Below are positions 35,310-51,805 of a stretch of 64,000 bases of DNA, in pieces. This DNA is from Promethearchaeota archaeon (GTDB taxonomy: Archaea; Asgardarchaeota; Lokiarchaeia; Sigyniarchaeales; SOKP01). Made by a program: the position numbers and the translations under genes. A model generated the notes under the pieces. The model was not told where the DNA came from and did not search any database. It was given only the letters and a program-made list of their open reading frames with translations. The stretch is from assembly GCA_019058445.1 (NCBI GenBank), contig JAHPZA010000010.1, positions 544,001 to 608,000 on the forward strand. The letters run 5' to 3'. Within the stretch, counting starts at the first letter, position 1. Each line of letters starts with the position of its first letter.

Positions 35310-35678
35310 TTAAATTAATTTTGCTATTTTTTCACAAGTCCTTTTACAATCTAAGAATATCAGACCGAGTCTCACATCCTTTGTAGTTGAAACTGTTAAA
35401 ACTGCATTTTGACCTGCTGATAAAACAAGTAAATACCCATTAGATCCTCTTACATATACTTGTTCAAATTCTCCTTTACTCATCTCGAGTGCAGCCCTTT
35501 CTGCTAAACTTAGAAGCGCAGCAGTCATGGCAGCTATTCTGGTTTCATCAACATCTTGGGGTAATGCTGAAGCAATGGGTAAGCCTTCCACAGATACAAT
35601 TGCGGCAGCTTTTACTTCTGGAATTGCAGCTAATAATTTTTTAAGAATAGTATCTAAAGACTCGGGAGTTGACTCCAT
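35310..35678 (-). CDS. Roadblock/LC7 (MglB-like) protein
   Basis: AAAIVSVEGLPIASALP..VDETRIAAMTAALLSLAER...EQVYVRG..LGLIFLD. Confidence 0.93.
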   Translation of the reverse strand: MESTPESLDTILKKLLAAIPEVKAAAIVSVEGLPIASALPQDVDETRIAAMTAALLSLAERAALEMSKGEFEQVYVRGSNGYLLVLSAGQNAVLTVSTTKDVRLGLIFLDCKRTCEKIAKLI

Positions 35679-40615: not shown

Positions 40616-41827
40616 TTAACTATTGGACAAATCTACCAGAAATTTATCAATATCATTAATTTCGAATGAATCTAATATCTCAGGATTGATTTTATAAAGG
40701 TGTTGAAGAATTTTTTTTAATTTTGAATTGTCAAGTCCATGATAATGTGTGTTATAGAACCCATTGCAAATAGCAATAAAGTTCTTTTTATTTATAATAT
40801 CAAAACCTTTACCAATTATACTTGCTAAAAGTTTAGAAATTTCGATATAAGAGAAATTTATTGAAATTAGTGATGATAATATACTGTAATCAAATCTCCC
40901 ATTTGAAAATTCATTACGTAAGAGGAATCCTAATCTTTTTAGGTTAATGATTGAATTATCTATTAAATACTTAAATGCTTCAGCTAATACTGGCTTAGCA
41001 TTATTCTTTATAATTAAATTAATTATATGAAAAATGGATTTACTTTCATATAAGTAGTTTGAAATAATAATTGATAACCCAGTAGCCTGATCACTTATGT
41101 AAGTTGGATCAGTTAGGAATTTTAAATCAGGGTATTTTAAATTTAAAATTTTTTCATAAATAATTTTTCCAACATTAGAAGAAGAAAGTGCTCTATTAGT
41201 ACCAATCATTATCTCTGAGATTTGTTTAATATTTAAATTTAAAGCAGAACTTATGGACTGAATCAGTTCTATAACCACGGTAACTTTTAGTATATTGAAT
41301 TCTATTAATATTCCTAAAAATCTTCCAACTCTCACGTAACTGGCATAACTATGCAATATAATTTTTTGCAATATATTCTCTATGTCTTGCATACCAATGA
41401 GAGCGTTTTCTAAAAGATAATCAATAACTCCAGAAAGTTGATAACTCATATCTCCCTCATGATCAAGTTGAAGAAAACCACCAATTATTTTTTCTATCTC
41501 AAATTTCCTTTCCTTCAATTTAGATAACGATAAAGCTGGCAAAATCACATAATTTCTTTCGTATTCTTCACTCCCGTAATGTTCAAGAGCTCTTAAACCA
41601 AAGACTTCCATAAAAAAAATAGAGATTAATCGTGAATTAAGATCATGAAATTCCTGTGTGATGAAGGAAGAGAAACATTCGACAAAAGCTTCAATTTCGT
41701 ATTGCGATGAGATTTTTTGAAAAAAGTTTATTACCATTTCTAATTTTTCTTCAATAGACTGATTTAAATCTAATATTTCGTTTAATTCATTATCATCCTC
41801 ATTGCTGAGAAAATCCTTCCATACCAT
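40616..41827 (-). CDS. Hypothetical, probably all-alpha protein
   Basis: 403-codon ORF with Leu/Ile-rich amphipathic helices; no motif recognised. Confidence 0.65.
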   Translation of the reverse strand: MVWKDFLSNEDDNELNEILDLNQSIEEKLEMVINFFQKISSQYEIEAFVECFSSFITQEFHDLNSRLISIFFMEVFGLRALEHYGSEEYERNYVILPALSLSKLKERKFEIEKIIGGFLQLDHEGDMSYQLSGVIDYLLENALIGMQDIENILQKIILHSYASYVRVGRFLGILIEFNILKVTVVIELIQSISSALNLNIKQISEIMIGTNRALSSSNVGKIIYEKILNLKYPDLKFLTDPTYISDQATGLSIIISNYLYESKSIFHIINLIIKNNAKPVLAEAFKYLIDNSIINLKRLGFLLRNEFSNGRFDYSILSSLISINFSYIEISKLLASIIGKGFDIINKKNFIAICNGFYNTHYHGLDNSKLKKILQHLYKINPEILDSFEINDIDKFLVDLSNS

Positions 41828-41966: not shown

Positions 41967-44816
41967 ATGGAAGACTTACTTAAATCGCTGATAAATAATT
42001 ATATAAGACATTCAAAAAATATTTTAGGTGTAATAATTAGTGATAGAAACGGAAACATAATTGTTACAAAAATAAAAGATGAAATCACTCAAGAATCTTT
42101 ATTAGATTTTATATCAAACTCGCTTTACAAGAAACTGGATGAATTTATTATCAAATACAAAGCTGAAAATTCATTTTTTAAAATCAAGGCAACACCCGAT
42201 ATAAAATATTCTGTTTGTTCATTCGGTAAATGCTTACTTATTACAATTGCAAAAAATTCTATTTCTGATACCGAATTAAAAATTTATTCTATAAATATTA
42301 CAGAAAAAGTAGAATTGATATATGAAGGTCAAAAGGAAATATCTTTAGAGATCCCCGAAGTTATGAAGATTTTTTCTAAGACAAAAGATAAAAGATTCCC
42401 TCAGGGAGAACATTCGATTAAGATTATTGTGGTTGGGGATTTTAAAGCTGGTAAGTCCTCTGTTATAAAAAGAATAATAGAAGACAAATATATTGAAGCT
42501 CATAATCCGACTGTCGGATTTCATATTTCAAAGAAAATTCTTACGATTGAAGATACTAACATTCGATTTAGTATCTGGGACACTGGTGGTCTGGTTAGTC
42601 AAATATCTCCCACAAAAGATAAAATTTATAATCATGCTGATGCAGCCTTAATAATTGTTGATAGAACTAGACCTACCAATATAAAAAGCATTAAAAAATG
42701 GTATAATGATATTAATAACTCTGTTTCAAAAAAAATACCAATCATTATTATAGGTACTAAAATTGATAAAACCTCCGACATCAAACTAAGGGAAGAAGAT
42801 ATAAAAACCCTAGCAAAAGAATATGAAATCCCTTTTATCCCTACGTCTGCTAAAACAGGGAAAAACATCAATCGGGCCTTTATTAATCTCACTTATAGAA
42901 TCATTGATGAGTTAACAAAATTAGAACCCTATGAACTCAAAAGTAAATACAAAAGCTATTACTTAAGTTCTGAAGAAACTAAAGCACTAGAGGATTTAGA
43001 GAATTTAATAGTAGAAAATGCAGATAAATCTTTCAATATAACATTTCGTTATGATTTAAAAAGGCTAAAAGTTAGAGGTTTTCCATTTATCCATGAGATA
43101 AGTGAAACTTCGTATGGGATTGAAATCCAAAATGGAAGTATCGTTGGAATTGGTCTGTTTAATTGTGGATTAACAAGACTTCCAGATTCTTTTAGTATTT
43201 TTAAGTCACTTAAAAGATTATCTTTAAGATCTAATCCTCTTAAATCATTTCCAGAACCAATTTGTAAATTAAAAAATCTTGAAATATTAGATCTTTCACT
43301 CACAAATTTGAGTCAAGTACCATCTATCATTGGTAACCTACATAATCTCAAGGAACTTCATTTGGAAAATAATTGGCTAAGAACTCTTCCTGAATCATTT
43401 GGTCAGCTAAATTCGCTTAGAATATTAAACTTGGAGAATAATCCAATTGATCATTTACCTAAATCTTTTGGAAATTTGAAATCTCTTAAAAAATTGTTGT
43501 TAGAGTCATCTCCCTTTGAGCAAAGCGGATATATGATAAATCTACCTAAAAATTTTGGTAATCTGCAATTTCTTCAAGAATTAGATTTAAGTTCTCATAA
43601 ATTAAAGATACTTCCAGAATCATTTGGAGATCTAAAGTCATTAAAGATCCTTGATTTGTTCAATAATAGATTTAAAACGCTTCCCAATTACTTTGGAAAT
43701 CTACAAGCACTTGAGGAATTAAATTTGGAAAGAAATTTAATACAATTTTTTCCAAAAGCTTTTGGTAATTTGTCAAGTTTAAAATCTGTTAATTTAAAAA
43801 ATAATATTATCACAAAAAAGGAAGCATCTAAAAGATTTAAAGCACTCGCTTTTAAGTCTATTGGAAATGATTATGATAGATGGATAAAAATCGCGGGGTC
43901 AATGGAAAACCACGAAGATCAGATGCAAATAATTAGACCGGATCTAAAAGAGAATATGATTTTAAAAAATATAATCACTCCGTTTATTTATGCGTGTTCC
44001 ATTGCTTTTATCGGATTGGTTACATTCCTCACTACAGATATAGAATCTTTAAAGCTCAATGTTAGCATTATATGGATCCTTTTCTTAGGAGCCTTAATAA
44101 TAAACCTTCTCATTGGTACATCAATTATATCAACAATTTCGACATATTTTAAATTTTCAATCTCAACGTTTGGGATTACGGCTCAAAAAACGGTTCTTAA
44201 ATTTTTTGATGTCCTTGTAGCAGTATTATTAGTTTGGGCCATAAGAGCTGCTGTTTTAGCTGCTATACGAATCGAATTGATTCCTGCGGTTAATTTTTTC
44301 TTTGATTTTTCAATTCCACAATGGATTTTAAATATACTGGTACTTTTCGGATATAATATAGATTTAACATTCTTGGAAAACATTGACCTTTTTTTAGGGC
44401 ATTTTTACTTAAAATTATTTAGTGCCGCATTAGTTTTTTGGGCTTTATATCGAAATGGCTTAAGTTATATTAAAAAAACTGCCTTTGATGAGACTGAGAA
44501 TAAAAATATATGGGCATTTTTAGTGATAGGATTATTTGGAGCGTTTTGGCTTGCGATTATGGATTATAGCAATCTAAAACCAATGTTGAGCATAGGTTAT
44601 TATATAGGGGTGTCTTTAGGTGCATTTGTCTTTATATGGGAAAAAAATAAAGAAAATAAAGTCATATTTTATCTCTATTGCTTCATTTTTGGGCTCGGAA
44701 TTTTAACAGTATGGTTGCTTTCTCTATGGAATTTAATGATTTCATTCTTAATGGGAATTATATTTATTATTCTATTTTTTATATTACGATGGAAATCCCA
44801 TAACATTCCACTATAA
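41967..44816 (+). CDS. Multidomain fusion: Roadblock-like, Rab-like small GTPase, LRR solenoid, about 8-9 TM domain
   Basis: ILGVIISDRNG; GDFKAGKS, PTVG, WDTGG, TKID, SAK; nine mostly 23-aa LPxSFGxLxxLxxLxLxxN repeats; hydrophobic C-terminal 280 aa. Confidence 0.88.
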   Translation: MEDLLKSLINNYIRHSKNILGVIISDRNGNIIVTKIKDEITQESLLDFISNSLYKKLDEFIIKYKAENSFFKIKATPDIKYSVCSFGKCLLITIAKNSISDTELKIYSINITEKVELIYEGQKEISLEIPEVMKIFSKTKDKRFPQGEHSIKIIVVGDFKAGKSSVIKRIIEDKYIEAHNPTVGFHISKKILTIEDTNIRFSIWDTGGLVSQISPTKDKIYNHADAALIIVDRTRPTNIKSIKKWYNDINNSVSKKIPIIIIGTKIDKTSDIKLREEDIKTLAKEYEIPFIPTSAKTGKNINRAFINLTYRIIDELTKLEPYELKSKYKSYYLSSEETKALEDLENLIVENADKSFNITFRYDLKRLKVRGFPFIHEISETSYGIEIQNGSIVGIGLFNCGLTRLPDSFSIFKSLKRLSLRSNPLKSFPEPICKLKNLEILDLSLTNLSQVPSIIGNLHNLKELHLENNWLRTLPESFGQLNSLRILNLENNPIDHLPKSFGNLKSLKKLLLESSPFEQSGYMINLPKNFGNLQFLQELDLSSHKLKILPESFGDLKSLKILDLFNNRFKTLPNYFGNLQALEELNLERNLIQFFPKAFGNLSSLKSVNLKNNIITKKEASKRFKALAFKSIGNDYDRWIKIAGSMENHEDQMQIIRPDLKENMILKNIITPFIYACSIAFIGLVTFLTTDIESLKLNVSIIWILFLGALIINLLIGTSIISTISTYFKFSISTFGITAQKTVLKFFDVLVAVLLVWAIRAAVLAAIRIELIPAVNFFFDFSIPQWILNILVLFGYNIDLTFLENIDLFLGHFYLKLFSAALVFWALYRNGLSYIKKTAFDETENKNIWAFLVIGLFGAFWLAIMDYSNLKPMLSIGYYIGVSLGAFVFIWEKNKENKVIFYLYCFIFGLGILTVWLLSLWNLMISFLMGIIFIILFFILRWKSHNIPL
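43179..43810 (+). repeat. Leucine-rich repeat array (about 9 units, mostly 69 nt) inside the GTPase fusion
   Basis: Units starting LPDSF, FPEPI, VPSII, LPESF, LPKSF, LPKNF, LPESF, LPNYF, FPKAF. Confidence 0.9.
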
Positions 44817-45665
44817 GGAATTTTCCTTCTTTTTTCAGTAAGAAGAGAGAAATTTTTAATCCATAAATATTTGTGGATTTAACTTTAAAATCTTTTTTAG
44901 AAACATTCTTACAAAGTGTGATGTTGGAACCATATCTAATTCTTCTTAAGTCATCTATAACGTATAAATTAGTTGCATCTAACTTAACTAATAAATAAAT
45001 GTTTTACATATTTCACAATTTTATTTAATACTCCTTGATGTAGTCCAAAATTATTGTTCAATTGAATACACTCACTGATATTAGATTATTCATTTAGAGG
45101 GATAAGAATTATTTGTATGAACAAGATTATTGAACAAGTTTTATGAGCTTGGGTATTAAATGAAATATTTTTTTCCAATATATTCCCACCAATTTCCCAT
45201 TATTAAGCAGTTAACATGCTTTATTACCCCATTGATAGACTGATTTTATAAAGTAACAATCATATTTGTTCTAGATCTCACTTTTCAATCGAATTTATAA
45301 AGCGTTTAACTTCTTATTTATACAGCTTGTATTAAAGAGGATTCAAAACTATCGCAAATAGGTTGAAATGAAATATTGGTGAACTAGATCTCTGTTAAAT
45401 CGCCGACAAATTATGGCTTTCTTCTTTGCATTCAAGCTTTGTTTTTTGAAATGCTCACTAAGAAAGAGTTTGAAATTCTAATTATAAACTATAAACTCTA
45501 TTCTTATAAATAAGAATTAGATTTTTGAGAGGAATAAATCAATAAAATCTTTGTTTCTATCCATAAAATTCATTAATAGATTTGCGAAAATACATATTAA
45601 TCCATATTAAGAGATTAATAAAGATAAAAAAATGCTTAAAAAAAGGATAAAAAGAGAGAAACTAA

Positions 45666-46202
45666 CTACTTTAAATATTGTGCTATTTCTAACATTCTCT
45701 CCGAAATGCCCTTAAATAATTCTTCTATATTTTCTCCTGTTTTAGAAGAACATTCAATAAACTCATAAAAATTATATTTTTTTGCCATTTCATTTCCTTC
45801 TTCAGTCGAAATTACCCGTTTTTCTTCTAAATCCTTTTTTCCTCCTACCATAATAAGAGGTATATCAATAAACCTACTTTCGAAACTCTTCTTAAAAACT
45901 TCTAGCCATTTTTCCATATTTTCTATGCTTGAATGTCGAGTAATATCGTACATAAAGATCCCTCCAGAAGAACCTGAAGCATATGTCGGAAGCAAAAATC
46001 GAAACTTGTCTTCACCCGCGAAGTCCCAAATCTGCAATGTTATTGCTTTATCGCCTATATCCAGCTTTTTAATATAGAAATCTGCACCAATCGTTATTTT
46101 ATAGTCACCTTTGAACGTTCCAGTGAGATAACGATTCACCAATGTGGTTTTACCAACACCTCCATCCCCAAATACGCAGACTTTAAATTTTGCATATGGC
46201 AT
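45666..46202 (-). CDS. Rab-like small GTPase (tandem copy 4)
   Basis: GDGGVGKT, TIG, WDFAGED, GGKKD, CSSK; GAGG before ATG 46202 (ORF track starts at 46247). Confidence 0.93.
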   Translation of the reverse strand: MPYAKFKVCVFGDGGVGKTTLVNRYLTGTFKGDYKITIGADFYIKKLDIGDKAITLQIWDFAGEDKFRFLLPTYASGSSGGIFMYDITRHSSIENMEKWLEVFKKSFESRFIDIPLIMVGGKKDLEEKRVISTEEGNEMAKKYNFYEFIECSSKTGENIEELFKGISERMLEIAQYLK

Positions 46203-46317
46203 AATTATTTCCTCAGCATCTATAATCTTAACATAAATTTCTCCCAATTAATAAGCTTAATATCATGAATTTTATTTAAATTTTTTAATTTTTGGATCAA
46301 AAAAATAGTATCCGTAC

Positions 46318-46854
46318 TTAAAGGATATTTTGTCTTTTCATCATCAATTCAGCAAGTTTTTCAAAGGTTAAAAGAACATTTTCGCCCGTTTTGGCGGAAC
46401 ATTCGATATATTCAAAAATTCCATCATAAGACTCAACTATCGCTCTGGCATCTTCGTAGGAAACTGCTCTTTTATAATCTAGATCTTTTTTGCTCCCGAC
46501 CATTAAGAGAGGAATCTGAACTTCATTTCTTTTACTCCCTTCCTCAAAAACTTCCATCCAACTATTAAAATTTCTGAAGCTGGAAAATCTGGTGATGTCA
46601 TACATAAAAATTGCGCCAGAAGCACCAAGTAAATAGCTCGGTAGGATGAAACGGAATCTATCCTCTCCCGCGAAGTCCCATATCTGTAAAGTCACAATCC
46701 CTCCTTCGAAATCAAGCTTTTTAACATAGAAATTCACACCTATAGTAATTTTTAGATGATCCTTAAAAACACCAGTCAAGTAGCGATTAACTAGAGTTGT
46801 TTTACCTACTCCCCCGTCACCGAGAATACAGATCTTATAAATCGTTTGTGTCAT
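46318..46854 (-). CDS. Rab-like small GTPase (tandem copy 3)
   Basis: GDGGVGKT, TIG, WDFAGED, GSKKD, CSAK. Confidence 0.93.
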   Translation of the reverse strand: MTQTIYKICILGDGGVGKTTLVNRYLTGVFKDHLKITIGVNFYVKKLDFEGGIVTLQIWDFAGEDRFRFILPSYLLGASGAIFMYDITRFSSFRNFNSWMEVFEEGSKRNEVQIPLLMVGSKKDLDYKRAVSYEDARAIVESYDGIFEYIECSAKTGENVLLTFEKLAELMMKRQNIL

Positions 46855-46894
46855 TTATGAGTGCCTAACTTAAAAAAAAATGCTTCATTCTTTA

Positions 46895-46924
46895 AAATCT
46901 AATAAACTGATTACTTATAATTTT
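46895..46924 (-). promoter_or_regulatory. Candidate BRE/TATA promoter of GTPase 46318..46854; 26/30 identical to 47573-47602
   Basis: Minus strand: A-rich run, TTATAA, then shared downstream sequence. Confidence 0.55.
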
Positions 46925-47009
46925 TTTTGATTGATATTCTTTAAATACTAATATGATTAAAAAATTTTTAAATTCGTCAGAACAACCTTAGAATATTATA
47001 AAAATAAGT

Positions 47010-47543
47010 TCATTCAAAATTTATATTTTCCAGCATTATTTTAGTAATGCTCTCGAAAATTTCATTTATATTTTCTCCTGTTTTAGATGAGCATTCCACG
47101 TAATGAGAAAAATTATGTTTTTTAGAAAATTCAATTGCATGTTCACTCATGACAGATCGTTTATGATCTAAGTCTAATTTTCCTCCAACCATTATTAATG
47201 GAATTTCTTTATCATAATTTTTTGTTCCTTTGTGAAATACTTCCATCCAATCGGTCAAATTTTTAATACTTGAATATCTAGTAAGATCAAACATAAATAT
47301 ACAGCCTGAACTTCCTATTATATAACTAGGTAAAATAAATTTGAAACGATCTTCTCCAGCAAAATCCCAAATTTGTAAGGTTACTGTTGATCCATTTATA
47401 TTTATTCTCTTCACAAAAAAATCTGCCCCGATAGTTATCTTATAATGCTCCTGAAATACACCAGTGAGATATCGGTTCACAAGAGATGTTTTTCCAACCC
47501 CGCCATCCCCAAATATGCAGATTTTAAACTTTTCCGGCTTCAT
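47010..47543 (-). CDS. Rab-like small GTPase (tandem copy 2)
   Basis: GDGGVGKT, TIG, WDFAGED, GGKLD, CSSK. Confidence 0.93.
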   Translation of the reverse strand: MKPEKFKICIFGDGGVGKTSLVNRYLTGVFQEHYKITIGADFFVKRININGSTVTLQIWDFAGEDRFKFILPSYIIGSSGCIFMFDLTRYSSIKNLTDWMEVFHKGTKNYDKEIPLIMVGGKLDLDHKRSVMSEHAIEFSKKHNFSHYVECSSKTGENINEIFESITKIMLENINFE

Positions 47544-47572
47544 TTTGAGATTTAATACTTTTAGTCATTTGA

Positions 47573-47602
47573 AATTCTAATAGACTTATTATTTATAATT
47601 TT
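47573..47602 (-). promoter_or_regulatory. Candidate BRE/TATA promoter of GTPase 47010..47543; duplicate of 46895-46924
   Basis: + strand aattctaatagacttattatttataatttt vs aaatctaataaactgattacttataatttt. Confidence 0.55.
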
Positions 47603-47712
47603 ATTTTTTCCGAAAGTCTAATACTAAATATTCTACAAAAAGCTATATAAAAAAATACAAATTTCTATTTTTTCCAAATGAGAGTTTTATTTTTCCCCAA
47701 AATTTTAGAAAG

Positions 47713-48246
47713 TTAGATAAGATTGACCCGTTTGCTTAGTTCTAATGCCAATTTATAGAAAATTAATTCTACATTTTCACCTGTTTTTGCAGAGCATTCA
47801 ATATAATCTAAAAGTTCATACTGTTTTGCCAGATCAACAGCATCTTTACTATATACTGATCTTCTGTCGTGTAAATCTAATTTTCCTCCAACCATAATTA
47901 TAGGTACGTCAATATTCATATCTACTGTTCCTTGCTTAAATATTTCAAGCCAATCGCCAAAGTTTCGTAAACTTGTGCGCCTCGTGATATCAAACATAAA
48001 TACTCCGCCAGAGGCACCTTTAACATAACCTGGGAGTAGAAATCTAAAGCGATCTTCTCCAGCAAAATCCCATATCTGCAAAGATACTCGTTTAGCATGA
48101 AATTCAAATTTTTTCATATGAAAATCCACACCAAGCGTCATGCTAGAATCTCCAGTAAATAATCCAGTAAGGTACCTCTTAACAAGAGAAGTCTTACCTA
48201 CACCTCCATCTCCGAAAATGCATACTTTAAAAAGTGCATCCTGCAT
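47713..48246 (-). CDS. Rab-like small GTPase (tandem copy 1)
   Basis: GDGGVGKT, TLG, WDFAGED, GGKLD, CSAK. Confidence 0.93.
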   Translation of the reverse strand: MQDALFKVCIFGDGGVGKTSLVKRYLTGLFTGDSSMTLGVDFHMKKFEFHAKRVSLQIWDFAGEDRFRFLLPGYVKGASGGVFMFDITRRTSLRNFGDWLEIFKQGTVDMNIDVPIIMVGGKLDLHDRRSVYSKDAVDLAKQYELLDYIECSAKTGENVELIFYKLALELSKRVNLI

Positions 48247-51412: not shown

Positions 51413-51805
51413 ATGAATCAGGAATCATCTTCAAGTTCTAGAAATCCGGGCCAAATAAATGAAATATTGAATGAAATCAAATTAGAAGGCAACCTTAAAG
51501 GAGTAGTACTTGCAAACCGTAATGGAGATCTTATAGCAGAAAATATTGCATTAGATAATTTTGATGGTACAACCTTTGCTGCGATGTGTGCTTCTGTTTT
51601 AGAGAGTGCGGATGGGCTGAGAAAAAACTTAGGGTCTAAAAAAGTTTTTAAAATTATTACAGAATTAGAAAGCGGTAAAATAATAATAATCATTGAACTG
51701 GATAAAAAGAGATTCTATTCTTTTATATTGGGCAAGGAATCTAAGATGGATTCTATATTAAATAATCTAGACCAATATAATCAAAAATTATCTGAAGCCT
51801 GTTAA
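51413..51805 (+). CDS. Roadblock/LC7 domain protein
   Basis: GVVLANRNGDLIA...TFAAMCASVLESA. Confidence 0.85.
   Translation: MNQESSSSSRNPGQINEILNEIKLEGNLKGVVLANRNGDLIAENIALDNFDGTTFAAMCASVLESADGLRKNLGSKKVFKIITELESGKIIIIIELDKKRFYSFILGKESKMDSILNNLDQYNQKLSEAC

Follow-up and report, generated by a model that had tools for sequence, protein, structure and literature searches.

Asgard genomes encode dozens of Ras-superfamily GTPases, no prenylation machinery has been found in them, and since 2016 it has been asked whether, and in what way, these GTPases act at membranes (PMC4917890); when Asgard GTPases were produced in human cells, they showed no membrane localization (PMC10933270). The locus described here raises this question in a direct form. 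An initial annotation of the window (the whole 64,000-nucleotide stretch of Promethearchaeota archaeon DNA that was analysed) had read one of its genes as a fusion of a Roadblock-like domain, a GTPase, leucine-rich repeats (LRRs), and a polytopic transmembrane (TM) part. Is such a protein real, where do its parts come from, and what might its switch control?

A four-domain gene and its two cassettes

The whole gene lies at 41967..44816 on the plus strand as a single uninterrupted open reading frame (ORF) of 949 aa plus stop, in agreement with the initial annotation, and looks monocistronic, the upstream gene being divergent and 139 bp away. The four domains and their order also proved real, as judged by Pfam, hhalign, AF2, Foldseek, hydropathy, and the orthologue alignment. 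That the locus is instead an artefact (a chimeric assembly, a frameshift-joined gene pair, or a decaying pseudogene) has next to no chance of being correct. Instability could be suspected from the forms without the Roadblock domain and from one in-frame stop apiece in a few GTDB loci, and nothing else points that way. Against it, about 34 orthologues (43 to 80% identity) were found on independent contigs from NCBI, JGI, ENA, and Logan, which rules out chimeric assembly; the same four-domain order recurs at full length in 19 aligned proteins from differing samples and pipelines, with conserved junction sequences; and composition is uniform along the gene, whose 949 codons remain open although stops are frequent at the genome's 30% G+C. 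The artefact reading is thus already refuted as far as sequence data allow.

Alignment-based comparison shows the protein to be a fusion of two older two-domain cassettes, A (aa 1-315) and B (aa about 316-949). Over its full length, the stretch aa 1-314 can be aligned with the C-terminal halves of G-RB-G proteins (38% identity, E 1e-68); the linker motif SLEIPxIxKxxSK is conserved in these paralogues too, and so travels with the Roadblock-G cassette, of which this genome holds at least seven further full-length examples. For cassette B, searching with a TM-module profile brought up proteins of the forms LRR-TM, LRR-TM-LRR, TM-LRR, and bare TM, all without a G domain; these relatives have hydrophilic N termini and no signal peptide. 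Cassette B, consisting of the LRR arm and the eight-TM module, is the conserved functional core.

Asgard archaea are already known to contain Roadblock-GTPase fusions as such (PMC4917890, citing Klinger 2016; PMC10933270). In the sections of these papers drawn on here, the fusions of Lokiarchaeum and MK-D1 (Tran et al. 2024) comprise soluble R-G, G-R, L-G, and "G + ?" architectures (PMC4917890, PMC10933270), and Tran et al. grouped most fusions with Rag- or Arf-like GTPases (PMC10933270). Our protein resembles them in placing a Roadblock domain N-terminally of a Ras/Rab-like G domain, within the homologous aa 1-314 (38% identity); those sections describe no fusion that combines an LRR arm with a polytopic membrane module. 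The literature searched contained no description of a Roadblock-GTPase-LRR-polytopic membrane architecture; the initial annotation had likewise known of none.

A GTPase without its catalytic glutamine and a dispensable Roadblock domain

The Rab-like G domain (aa 149-315; 42411..42911, plus strand) follows a conserved linker (aa 121-148; 42327..42410, plus strand) that reads SLEIPxIxKxFSK in the alignments, with Pro130 and Ser137 invariant. It matches Pfam Ras (PF00071) at aa 152-312 with an E value of 4.6e-33 (114.5 bits against a cut-off of 21.6), and its best PDB sequence matches are Ypt51/Rab5, Rab2, Rab4, Rab14, and Rab1. All motifs that the initial annotation had listed for a complete G domain are present: GDFKAGKS (G1, aa 157-164), PTVG (aa 181-184, with Thr182 as G2), WDTGGL (aa 204-209, with WDTGG as G3), TKID (G4, aa 264-267), and SAK (G5, aa 294-296). 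Residues K163, T182, G208, K265, D267, and S294 are invariant among the aligned orthologues and, judged from these motifs, nucleotide binding appears to be kept. P-loop positions 159 and 160 are variable; a role for Lys160 as a GBP/atlastin-like cis finger was considered and dropped, since position 160 may be K, E, Q, or R.

The switch II motif WDTGGLVSQ (42576..42602, plus strand) carries Leu209 (codon 42591-42593) at the position of Ras Gln61, which in the alignment is occupied by the catalytic Gln in Rab5/Ypt51, Rab2, and other Rabs. The Leu that had been pointed out after DxxG turned out to be fixed in kind throughout the family: each of the 31 aligned orthologues has either Leu or Phe at position 209, and the catalytic Gln is absent. 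Switch II contains GQ (GGQ or AGQ) in four of the five Roadblock-G paralogues examined, which thus mostly keep the catalytic Gln in contrast to the present family, and other Asgard Roadblock-linker-G proteins keep GGQ, a 327-aa Roadblock-G protein of the genome studied here (G000:C9:428185-429135) being one example; Leu/Phe is therefore a derived, family-wide change, and this comparison shows the loss of Gln to have occurred within the family. The missing residue makes impaired GTP hydrolysis a reasonable expectation. The nearly invariant Ser211-Gln212, at the second and third positions after Leu209, could stand in for the lost Gln, and hydrolysis could then be normal. Small GTPases naturally lacking the catalytic Gln include Rap (Thr61), Rnd/RhoE, kappaB-Ras, and LRRK2 (Arg1398); they are GTP-locked or depend on a GAP that supplies the missing group. 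As in these proteins, a residue other than Gln at Ras position 61 is a fixed family trait here and not a mutation; the present family differs in that an archaeal Rab-like domain carries Leu or Phe there, with the conserved Ser-Gln pair two and three residues on. A C-terminal Cys prenylation motif is absent, the G domain being internal and the protein ending in ...RWKSHNIPL, and membrane attachment would occur through the predicted TM helices and not through such a motif.

The N terminus (aa 1-120; 41967..42326, plus strand), which the initial annotation had called Roadblock-like, is a Roadblock/LC7 fold according to profile and structure-model comparisons, despite the lack of a Pfam match in this region even at E 10. 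When aligned by hhalign with 12 Robl_LC7 proteins of the same genome, it scored a probability of 90% (E 1.5e-6 over 108 columns). The AF2 model (pLDDT 85) has the topology alpha-beta-beta-alpha-beta-beta-beta-alpha, and all its top Foldseek matches in the PDB are MglB, dynein Roadblock, LAMTOR, or Asgard Roadblock proteins (probability 1.0, TM 0.6-0.69). A PDB profile search gave consistent weak matches to dynein Roadblock (E 0.1-1.4), and homologous domains in proteins P0041 and P0044 have weak Pfam matches to Robl_LC7 or MAPKK1_Int. Cys84-Ser85 and an ELKxYS motif in helix 3 are invariant.

The distribution of this domain among orthologues shows that it is dispensable. It is absent from 12 of the 31 aligned orthologues, and its presence and absence on the tree require at least six state changes, with losses numbering at least about five. 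In a syntenic orthologue of the same genus (76% identity) that lacks the domain, the upstream space measures only 148 bp and holds no relic, and tblastn of 19 Roadblock domains against six loci of short forms likewise found none. That the short forms might have their Roadblock domain encoded by a separate gene upstream was also rejected, on this tblastn result and on the 95-aa ORF upstream of P0031 being unrelated. The initial description of a self-contained platform that includes the Roadblock domain thus needs revision, as the domain is not integral to the protein. A complex prediction for Roadblock plus linker (aa 1-140) and the G domain (aa 141-325) with GTP and Mg scored 0.00, which speaks neither for nor against contact. 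The fold and its best structural matches (MglB, LAMTOR, and Asgard Roadblock proteins) recall the MglA-MglB and Rag-Ragulator systems; unlike in those, the Roadblock domain here is fused in cis and missing from many orthologues. MglB acts by positioning the Gln and Arg of MglA itself, and the present G domain lacks the Gln that MglB positions.

The LRR arm and the membrane module

Downstream of the G domain, a helical connector and LRR N-cap (aa 316-391; 42912..43139, plus strand) belong, by alignment, to the LRR-TM cassette, as the GTPase-less LRR-TM relatives begin at their N terminus with a similar motif. Ten LRRs of about 23 aa each follow (aa 392-628; 43140..43850, plus strand). Several Pfam LRR families, LRR_14 and LRR_8 among them, match over about aa 400-620, and the register was set by hand; the N-cap and the repeat array were as first annotated, and the count of about nine repeats becomes ten. 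Concave positions 5 and 7 are conserved as acidic or polar residues (Asp, Asn, Glu, or Ser), and such a conserved face would be more in keeping with a partner that stays the same than with one that diversifies.

A Ras-like G domain and SHOC2/LRRK2-type 23-residue LRRs in one chain are also found in Roco proteins (LRR-Roc-COR), which appear as distant matches through both domains, and Pfam Roc matches the G domain at 3e-22. In contrast to Roco proteins, the G domain here precedes the LRRs, the protein is membrane integral, and Ras/Rab score higher than Roc. True Roco matches carry PF16095; neither the whole protein nor aa 315-400 matched Pfam COR-A/COR-B (PF16095, PF25497), and no other Pfam family matched the connector region (aa 315-400). 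With its G-then-LRR order and no COR detected, the protein is not a Roco protein, as had been supposed.

A charged, K/R-rich juxtamembrane segment (aa 629-667; 43851..43967, plus strand), cytoplasmic according to topology analysis, leads into a polytopic membrane module of an uncharacterised family (aa 668-949; 43968..44813, plus strand). Hydropathy and the positive-inside rule, applied to 31 orthologues, predict eight TM helices with both ends inside and one hydrophobic, acidic, K/R-free segment, close to the eight or nine helices counted initially. K and R are enriched in the loops predicted to lie inside, whereas aa 769-807 average 0.3 K+R against 5.6 D+E. This stretch belongs to a signature segment (aa 769-812; 44271..44402, plus strand), ELIP..NF..P.W...GYN..LTFLEN.DLF.GH, for which an outer-face or re-entrant position is predicted. 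Across the wider TM family, R760, P784, and Y796 are invariant and E770, N805, and D807 nearly so; the present protein has the signature ELIP..NF..P.W...GYN..L.FLEN.DLF together with R760, D748, W825, and G831, next to LRRs.

Neither Pfam searches with the TM module alone and with 17 diverse members, up to E 5, nor a PDB profile search returned anything consistent. An AF2 model of the module (aa 640-949, 31-row alignment) reached a pLDDT of 57, and the helix count therefore rests on topology prediction. When this low-confidence model was compared with the PDB by VIA-align, matches were confined to the C-terminal helical hairpin (Z at most 7.6), and an ESM Atlas shape search gave TM scores of at most 0.31; an ESM Atlas feature search gave no usable match. 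The module profile found only 31 representatives among 1.84 billion proteins, almost all LRR linked; every scanned representative of at least 500 residues carries LRRs, and the named sources are labelled Promethearchaeota/Lokiarchaeota or Helarchaeota, with one subsurface metagenome; no match is labelled with a cultured strain. By domain, conservation was 0.70 for the TM module and 0.69 for the LRRs, as opposed to 0.60 for the G domain and 0.52 for the Roadblock domain. As the LRR and TM parts are the most conserved, the TM module does more than anchor the protein: the earlier idea that TM helices merely replace lipidation does not hold for the most conserved region, one that also exists, with the LRRs, as an older unit without a GTPase.

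The gene is single copy and present in 14 of the 68 genomes sampled from one GTDB family, with none in 232 other genomes sampled from the phylum; this patchy spread shows that it is not a core cell-biology component. Conserved gene neighborhood is confined to the genus, orthologues from farther away having unrelated neighbors, so that context gives no functional lead. A functional link to four adjacent small GTPase genes was considered as well and is not supported, the synteny being limited to close relatives and absent in distant orthologues.

A candidate nucleotide-gated scaffold at the membrane

We propose that the gene product is a membrane-integral, nucleotide-gated scaffold that arose from the two fused cassettes, a reading that we consider evenly poised between right and wrong. 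The whole N-terminal part is predicted to be cytoplasmic, with both ends of the membrane module inside and the conserved acidic segment toward the outside. The acidic concave face of the LRR arm would hold, right beside the membrane module, a cytoplasmic partner that is itself conserved. The G domain would bind GTP and, without the catalytic Gln, might be a slow, long-lived switch or one dependent on a trans-acting factor. Its state may control engagement of the LRR arm or of the membrane module, comparable to the repositioning of the LRR by Roc in Roco proteins. Where present, the Roadblock domain could be an optional cis regulator or a dimerization platform of the MglB/Ragulator type.

An unlikely competitor follows the logic of FeoB: the eight-TM module would be the effector, acting as a transporter, channel, or membrane enzyme on a small molecule, ion, lipid, or glycan, with the G domain as its gate and the LRRs as spacer or regulator. 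FeoB is an existing prokaryotic precedent for a G domain joined to a polytopic permease, and it shares with our protein a small N-terminal cytoplasmic G domain covalently linked to a multihelix membrane domain. The TM module is the most conserved part, the polar or charged residues D748, R760, E770, N776, N805, and D807, in or beside the membrane, are invariant or nearly so, and the signature segment is acidic and predicted to face outward or be re-entrant, all of which would suit such an effector. The G domain also has a weak, subthreshold match to Pfam FeoB_N (E 0.011; 15.7 bits against a cut-off of 27). However, FeoB_C and Gate did not match the TM part, in which Pfam, PDB, and ESM Atlas searches revealed no similarity to FeoB or to any family of transporters or enzymes; FeoB has neither LRRs nor a Roadblock domain; the near-obligate link to LRRs, on either or both sides of the TM module, is not a transporter feature; and the wider TM family does not conserve His812.

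A conflict or immune sensor of the Roco/NLR type is very unlikely. Such a protein would sense an invader protein through its LRRs, switch through its GTPase, and damage membranes through its membrane module; the combination of LRRs, NTPase switch, and membrane domain recalls sensor-switch-effector layouts, and the patchy, lineage-restricted spread with repeated domain loss would be in keeping with this. Nevertheless, the LRR concave face is conserved and not hypervariable, the gene is single copy, and Pfam detected neither COR nor NACHT/NB-ARC domains. A PADLOC match of the G domain to LeoA is weak (E 7e-5) and confined to P-loop residues of this dynamin-like GTPase model, and neither the window neighbors tested with PADLOC nor the Pfam-annotated genes beside orthologues look defence related.

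A further reading is that of a "receptor GTPase", in which the conserved outward acidic segment of the eight-TM module would sense an extracellular or membrane signal and pass it via the LRR arm to a slow-cycling, covalently attached Rab-like switch. We rate this reading as quite unlikely. If true, it would represent a prokaryotic transmembrane signaling device built from eukaryote-type parts, and a direct example of how Asgard small GTPases, which lack prenylation, may be committed to the membrane.

Relative to the initial annotation, the two-cassette origin, the dispensability of the Roadblock domain, and the LRR and TM parts as the most conserved ones are new. The narrow, patchy spread limits what may be concluded about eukaryogenesis in general. 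The LRR fold is overrepresented and functionally unexplained in Asgard archaea (bioRxiv 10.64898/2026.10.28.762692), and our analysis delimits an LRR-linked membrane module that had no name before. Natural experiments are offered by orthologues that either have or lack the Roadblock domain and by paralogous cassettes with Gln as opposed to Leu/Phe. The family provides a concrete, testable case of a Rab-like switch inside an integral membrane protein, in a group whose GTPases lack lipid anchors.

Domain architecture and origin of the fusion

The gene at 41967-44816 (+) is a single unbroken ORF of 949 aa, in a region of about 28-30% G+C with no shift in composition along the gene. Pfam assigned aa 152-312 to a Ras-family G domain (E 4.6e-33; also Roc, 3e-22, and Arf, 1e-14) and about aa 400-620 to several LRR families, with no match in aa 1-145 or aa 620-949. 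The uninterrupted reading frame and each of the G-domain motifs read in the initial annotation were found: GDFKAGKS (aa 157-164), PTVG (aa 181-184), WDTGGL (aa 204-209), TKID (aa 264-267), and SAK (aa 294-296).

Querying 5.8 billion proteins through a word index returned about 34 orthologues (43-80% identity) from NCBI, JGI, ENA, and Logan assemblies. Few of these are named; those that are have no label beyond "GTP-binding protein" and come from Promethearchaeota/Lokiarchaeota, Hermodarchaeota, or Hodarchaeota MAGs. Chimeric assembly, an early concern, is excluded by a 31-sequence orthologue alignment that is co-linear across every domain junction, and we consider an artefact extremely improbable. 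When 301 sampled genomes of the phylum were searched with a TM-module profile, the family turned up, always in single copy, in 14 of the 68 others that share the window's GTDB family and in none of 232 from 29 other families, and it is thus lineage-restricted and patchy. In four genomes of one genus, g3 (loci L024, L025, and those of G019/G117), the orthologue has one in-frame stop (TGA or TAA) in the TM-module match, which may point to recent pseudogenisation or to errors in sequencing.

Despite the silence of Pfam, four agreeing lines of evidence identify the N-terminus as a Roadblock domain, as had been proposed. A 19-sequence profile aligned in hhalign with 12 bona fide Robl_LC7 proteins from the window's genome (probability 90%, E 1.5e-6, 108 columns) and gave a weak, co-linear run of dynein Roadblock light chain matches in the PDB. 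The AF2 model (pLDDT 85, pTM 0.79) has the element order H-E-E-H-E-E-E-H, and nearly all of its top 50 Foldseek PDB matches belong to the Roadblock superfamily (probability 1.0, TM up to 0.69), including MglB, dynein Roadblock/LC7, LAMTOR/Ragulator subunits with yeast Ego3, and solved Prometheoarchaeum Roadblock proteins.

Judged from sequence, the protein is a fusion of a Roadblock-linker-G cassette and an LRR-TM cassette, since each is seen separately elsewhere. Residues 1-314 align end-to-end (38% identity, E 1e-68) with the C-terminal half of Asgard proteins that measure 577-658 aa and have G(Arf-like)-Roadblock-G(Ras-like) architecture. The linker SLEIPxIxKxxSK is shared with these proteins, whose Roadblock domains score weakly against Robl_LC7 or MAPKK1_Int in Pfam. 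At least seven additional full-length Roadblock-G cassettes occur in the window's own genome (G000), some stand-alone at about 325 aa and others within open frames of 530-897 aa; examples are at C9 (428185-429135 and 472754-473710), C1 (128706-129692), and C3 (43336-44310, 78343-79284, 253701-254591, and 261573-262451). This genome also has 18 Robl_LC7 and about 55 Ras-like G-domain matches, and two Robl genes lie in the window, at about 35388-35645 (-) and 51458-51691 (+). Roadblock-GTPase fusions have already been reported for Asgard archaea in PMC4917890, relaying Klinger et al. 2016, and described for MK-D1 in PMC10933270. For the second cassette, an exhaustive HMMER search of 1.84 billion representatives with the TM-module profile found only 31 proteins; those outside the G-LRR-TM family lack a GTPase and are LRR-TM, LRR-TM-LRR, TM-LRR, or bare-TM proteins, and the few named matches carry Asgard labels. 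The GTPase-less relatives have hydrophilic N-termini with no signal peptide, similar to the helical connector (aa 316-391).

The nucleotide switch and its optional Roadblock domain

In alignments with Rab5/Ypt51, Rab2, Rab4, Rab14, and Rab1, the nearest solved relatives by sequence in the PDB, Leu209 lies opposite the catalytic Gln. The Leu-for-Gln exchange after DxxG in the initial annotation is borne out across the family: 31 of 31 orthologues have Leu or Phe at position 209, the x-Ser-Gln that comes next is almost invariant, and the nucleotide- and Mg-binding residues K163, T182, G208, K265, D267, and S294 are invariant, with D205 kept in at least 90%. Because the paralogous Roadblock-G cassettes mostly keep Gln (WDIGGQ, WDIAGQ, or WDLAGQ; GGK in one), it was replaced on the branch to the LRR-TM-fused family, making its absence a derived, fixed trait. 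The natural expectation from Leu or Phe at this position is that intrinsic GTP hydrolysis would be slow or absent; Gln212 is a candidate substitute.

The switch had been described as part of a self-contained platform, a view that does not hold for the Roadblock domain, which is optional: in 12 of 31 orthologues the G domain is the very start of the protein. The same-genus syntenic orthologue (811 aa, 76% identity, only 148 bp upstream) lies in the order PGA_cap, HAD hydrolase, 408-aa unknown on the opposite strand, gene, and four small GTPase genes, and retains the initial Met-Glu-Asp, as if aa ~4-146 had been cleanly excised. No Roadblock relic was found near any short form looked at. One short form, P0004, may have been truncated by a contig end; the remainder lie on contigs of 6.5-117 kb, and an ML tree of the shared part requires at least six changes of Roadblock state. 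Directly 3' of one Roadblock-less member lies a 448-aa soluble HEAT-plus-LRR protein (L013:8420-9766, -).

LRR arm and membrane module

The predicted LRR array stood, with the count revised from about nine to ten repeats in correct register. Concave positions 5 and 7 carry conserved Asp/Asn/His and Glu/Ser (e.g., D442, E467, E513, D540, D563, N586, and E588), which indicates a fixed, probably basic partner rather than a diversifying target. Hydropathy places TM segments at about aa 668-690, 697-722, 745-768, 808-829, 846-866, 872-892, 898-920, and 922-944, in agreement with the eight to nine expected; the additional stretch, aa 769-807, is moderately hydrophobic, with family means of 0.3 K+R versus 5.6 D+E. 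As the GTPase must be cytoplasmic and K+R on average cluster in the C-terminus, in the juxtamembrane segment, and in loops 723-744, 830-845, and 893-897, the predicted topology is N-in, eight TM helices, C-in, with the acidic signature segment outward or re-entrant; an even helix number is compatible with the LRR-TM-LRR relatives. Conservation, taken as how frequent the most common residue of each column is on average, is 0.70 for TM, 0.69 for LRR, 0.60 for G, and 0.52 for Roadblock. The TM module has no relative in Pfam, PDB, or Atlas; its AF2 model was poor, and fold searches gave no informative match.

Gene neighbourhood and proposed function

Gene context is kept only within the genus and differs at more distant orthologues, so the four adjacent GTPase genes are no evidence of shared function, and a functional link with them is unsupported. 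These tandem Ras-family genes (45666-48246, -; 193, 178, 177, and 177 aa) share WDFAGE, which puts Glu where the catalytic Gln would be. All four read G[GS]KxD instead of NKxD and lack a C-terminal Cys; the array is kept in the close relatives L015 and L032 and missing beside more distant orthologues. Within an 850-bp ORF-free gap 3' of the gene, about 435 bp (44993-45427; 27% G+C, stops in six frames, no Rfam match) show 68-76% nucleotide identity in two syntenic relatives; candidate identities are a regulatory region, a non-coding RNA, and a gene that has decayed. The divergent 403-aa protein (40616-41827, -) has no Pfam or PADLOC match; its counterpart in the same-genus relative L015 is 408 aa at the same position, which in L032 is taken up by two ORFs, both shorter (299 and 77 aa) and unannotated.

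We favour, with roughly even confidence, a membrane-integral scaffold in which a conserved LRR-TM core would have gained a Rab-like, hydrolysis-impaired nucleotide switch, with Roadblock, where present, acting as a regulator or dimeriser. FeoB is a precedent for a G domain joined to a permease, and a transporter or enzyme gated in this way by the G domain would overlap with the scaffold; we find this distinctly less probable, and the protein fails FeoB membership tests. It likewise fails those for Roco, from which it differs by its reversed domain order, as had been pointed out, and by the lack of a detectable COR. A role as a conflict sensor seems improbable; PADLOC gave one weak match, to the P-loop only.

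The component parts of the protein are already known: Roadblock-GTPase fusions occur in Asgard archaea, the N-terminal fold is that of MglB/Ragulator, the LRRs are of SHOC2/Roco type, and FeoB is the precedent for a G domain on a permease. The four-domain architecture was unfamiliar at the outset, and the full-text literature searched describes no Roadblock-G-LRR-TM or G-LRR-TM protein, nor the TM module. The protein's function is one we infer, and its distribution is narrow. How Asgard GTPases without prenylation meet membranes is treated as an open question in PMC4917890, and PMC10933270 reports no membrane targeting of Asgard GTPases in HeLa cells. The family bears on how such prenylation-less GTPases reach membranes, and it offers natural comparison sets, with and without Roadblock and with Gln versus Leu.
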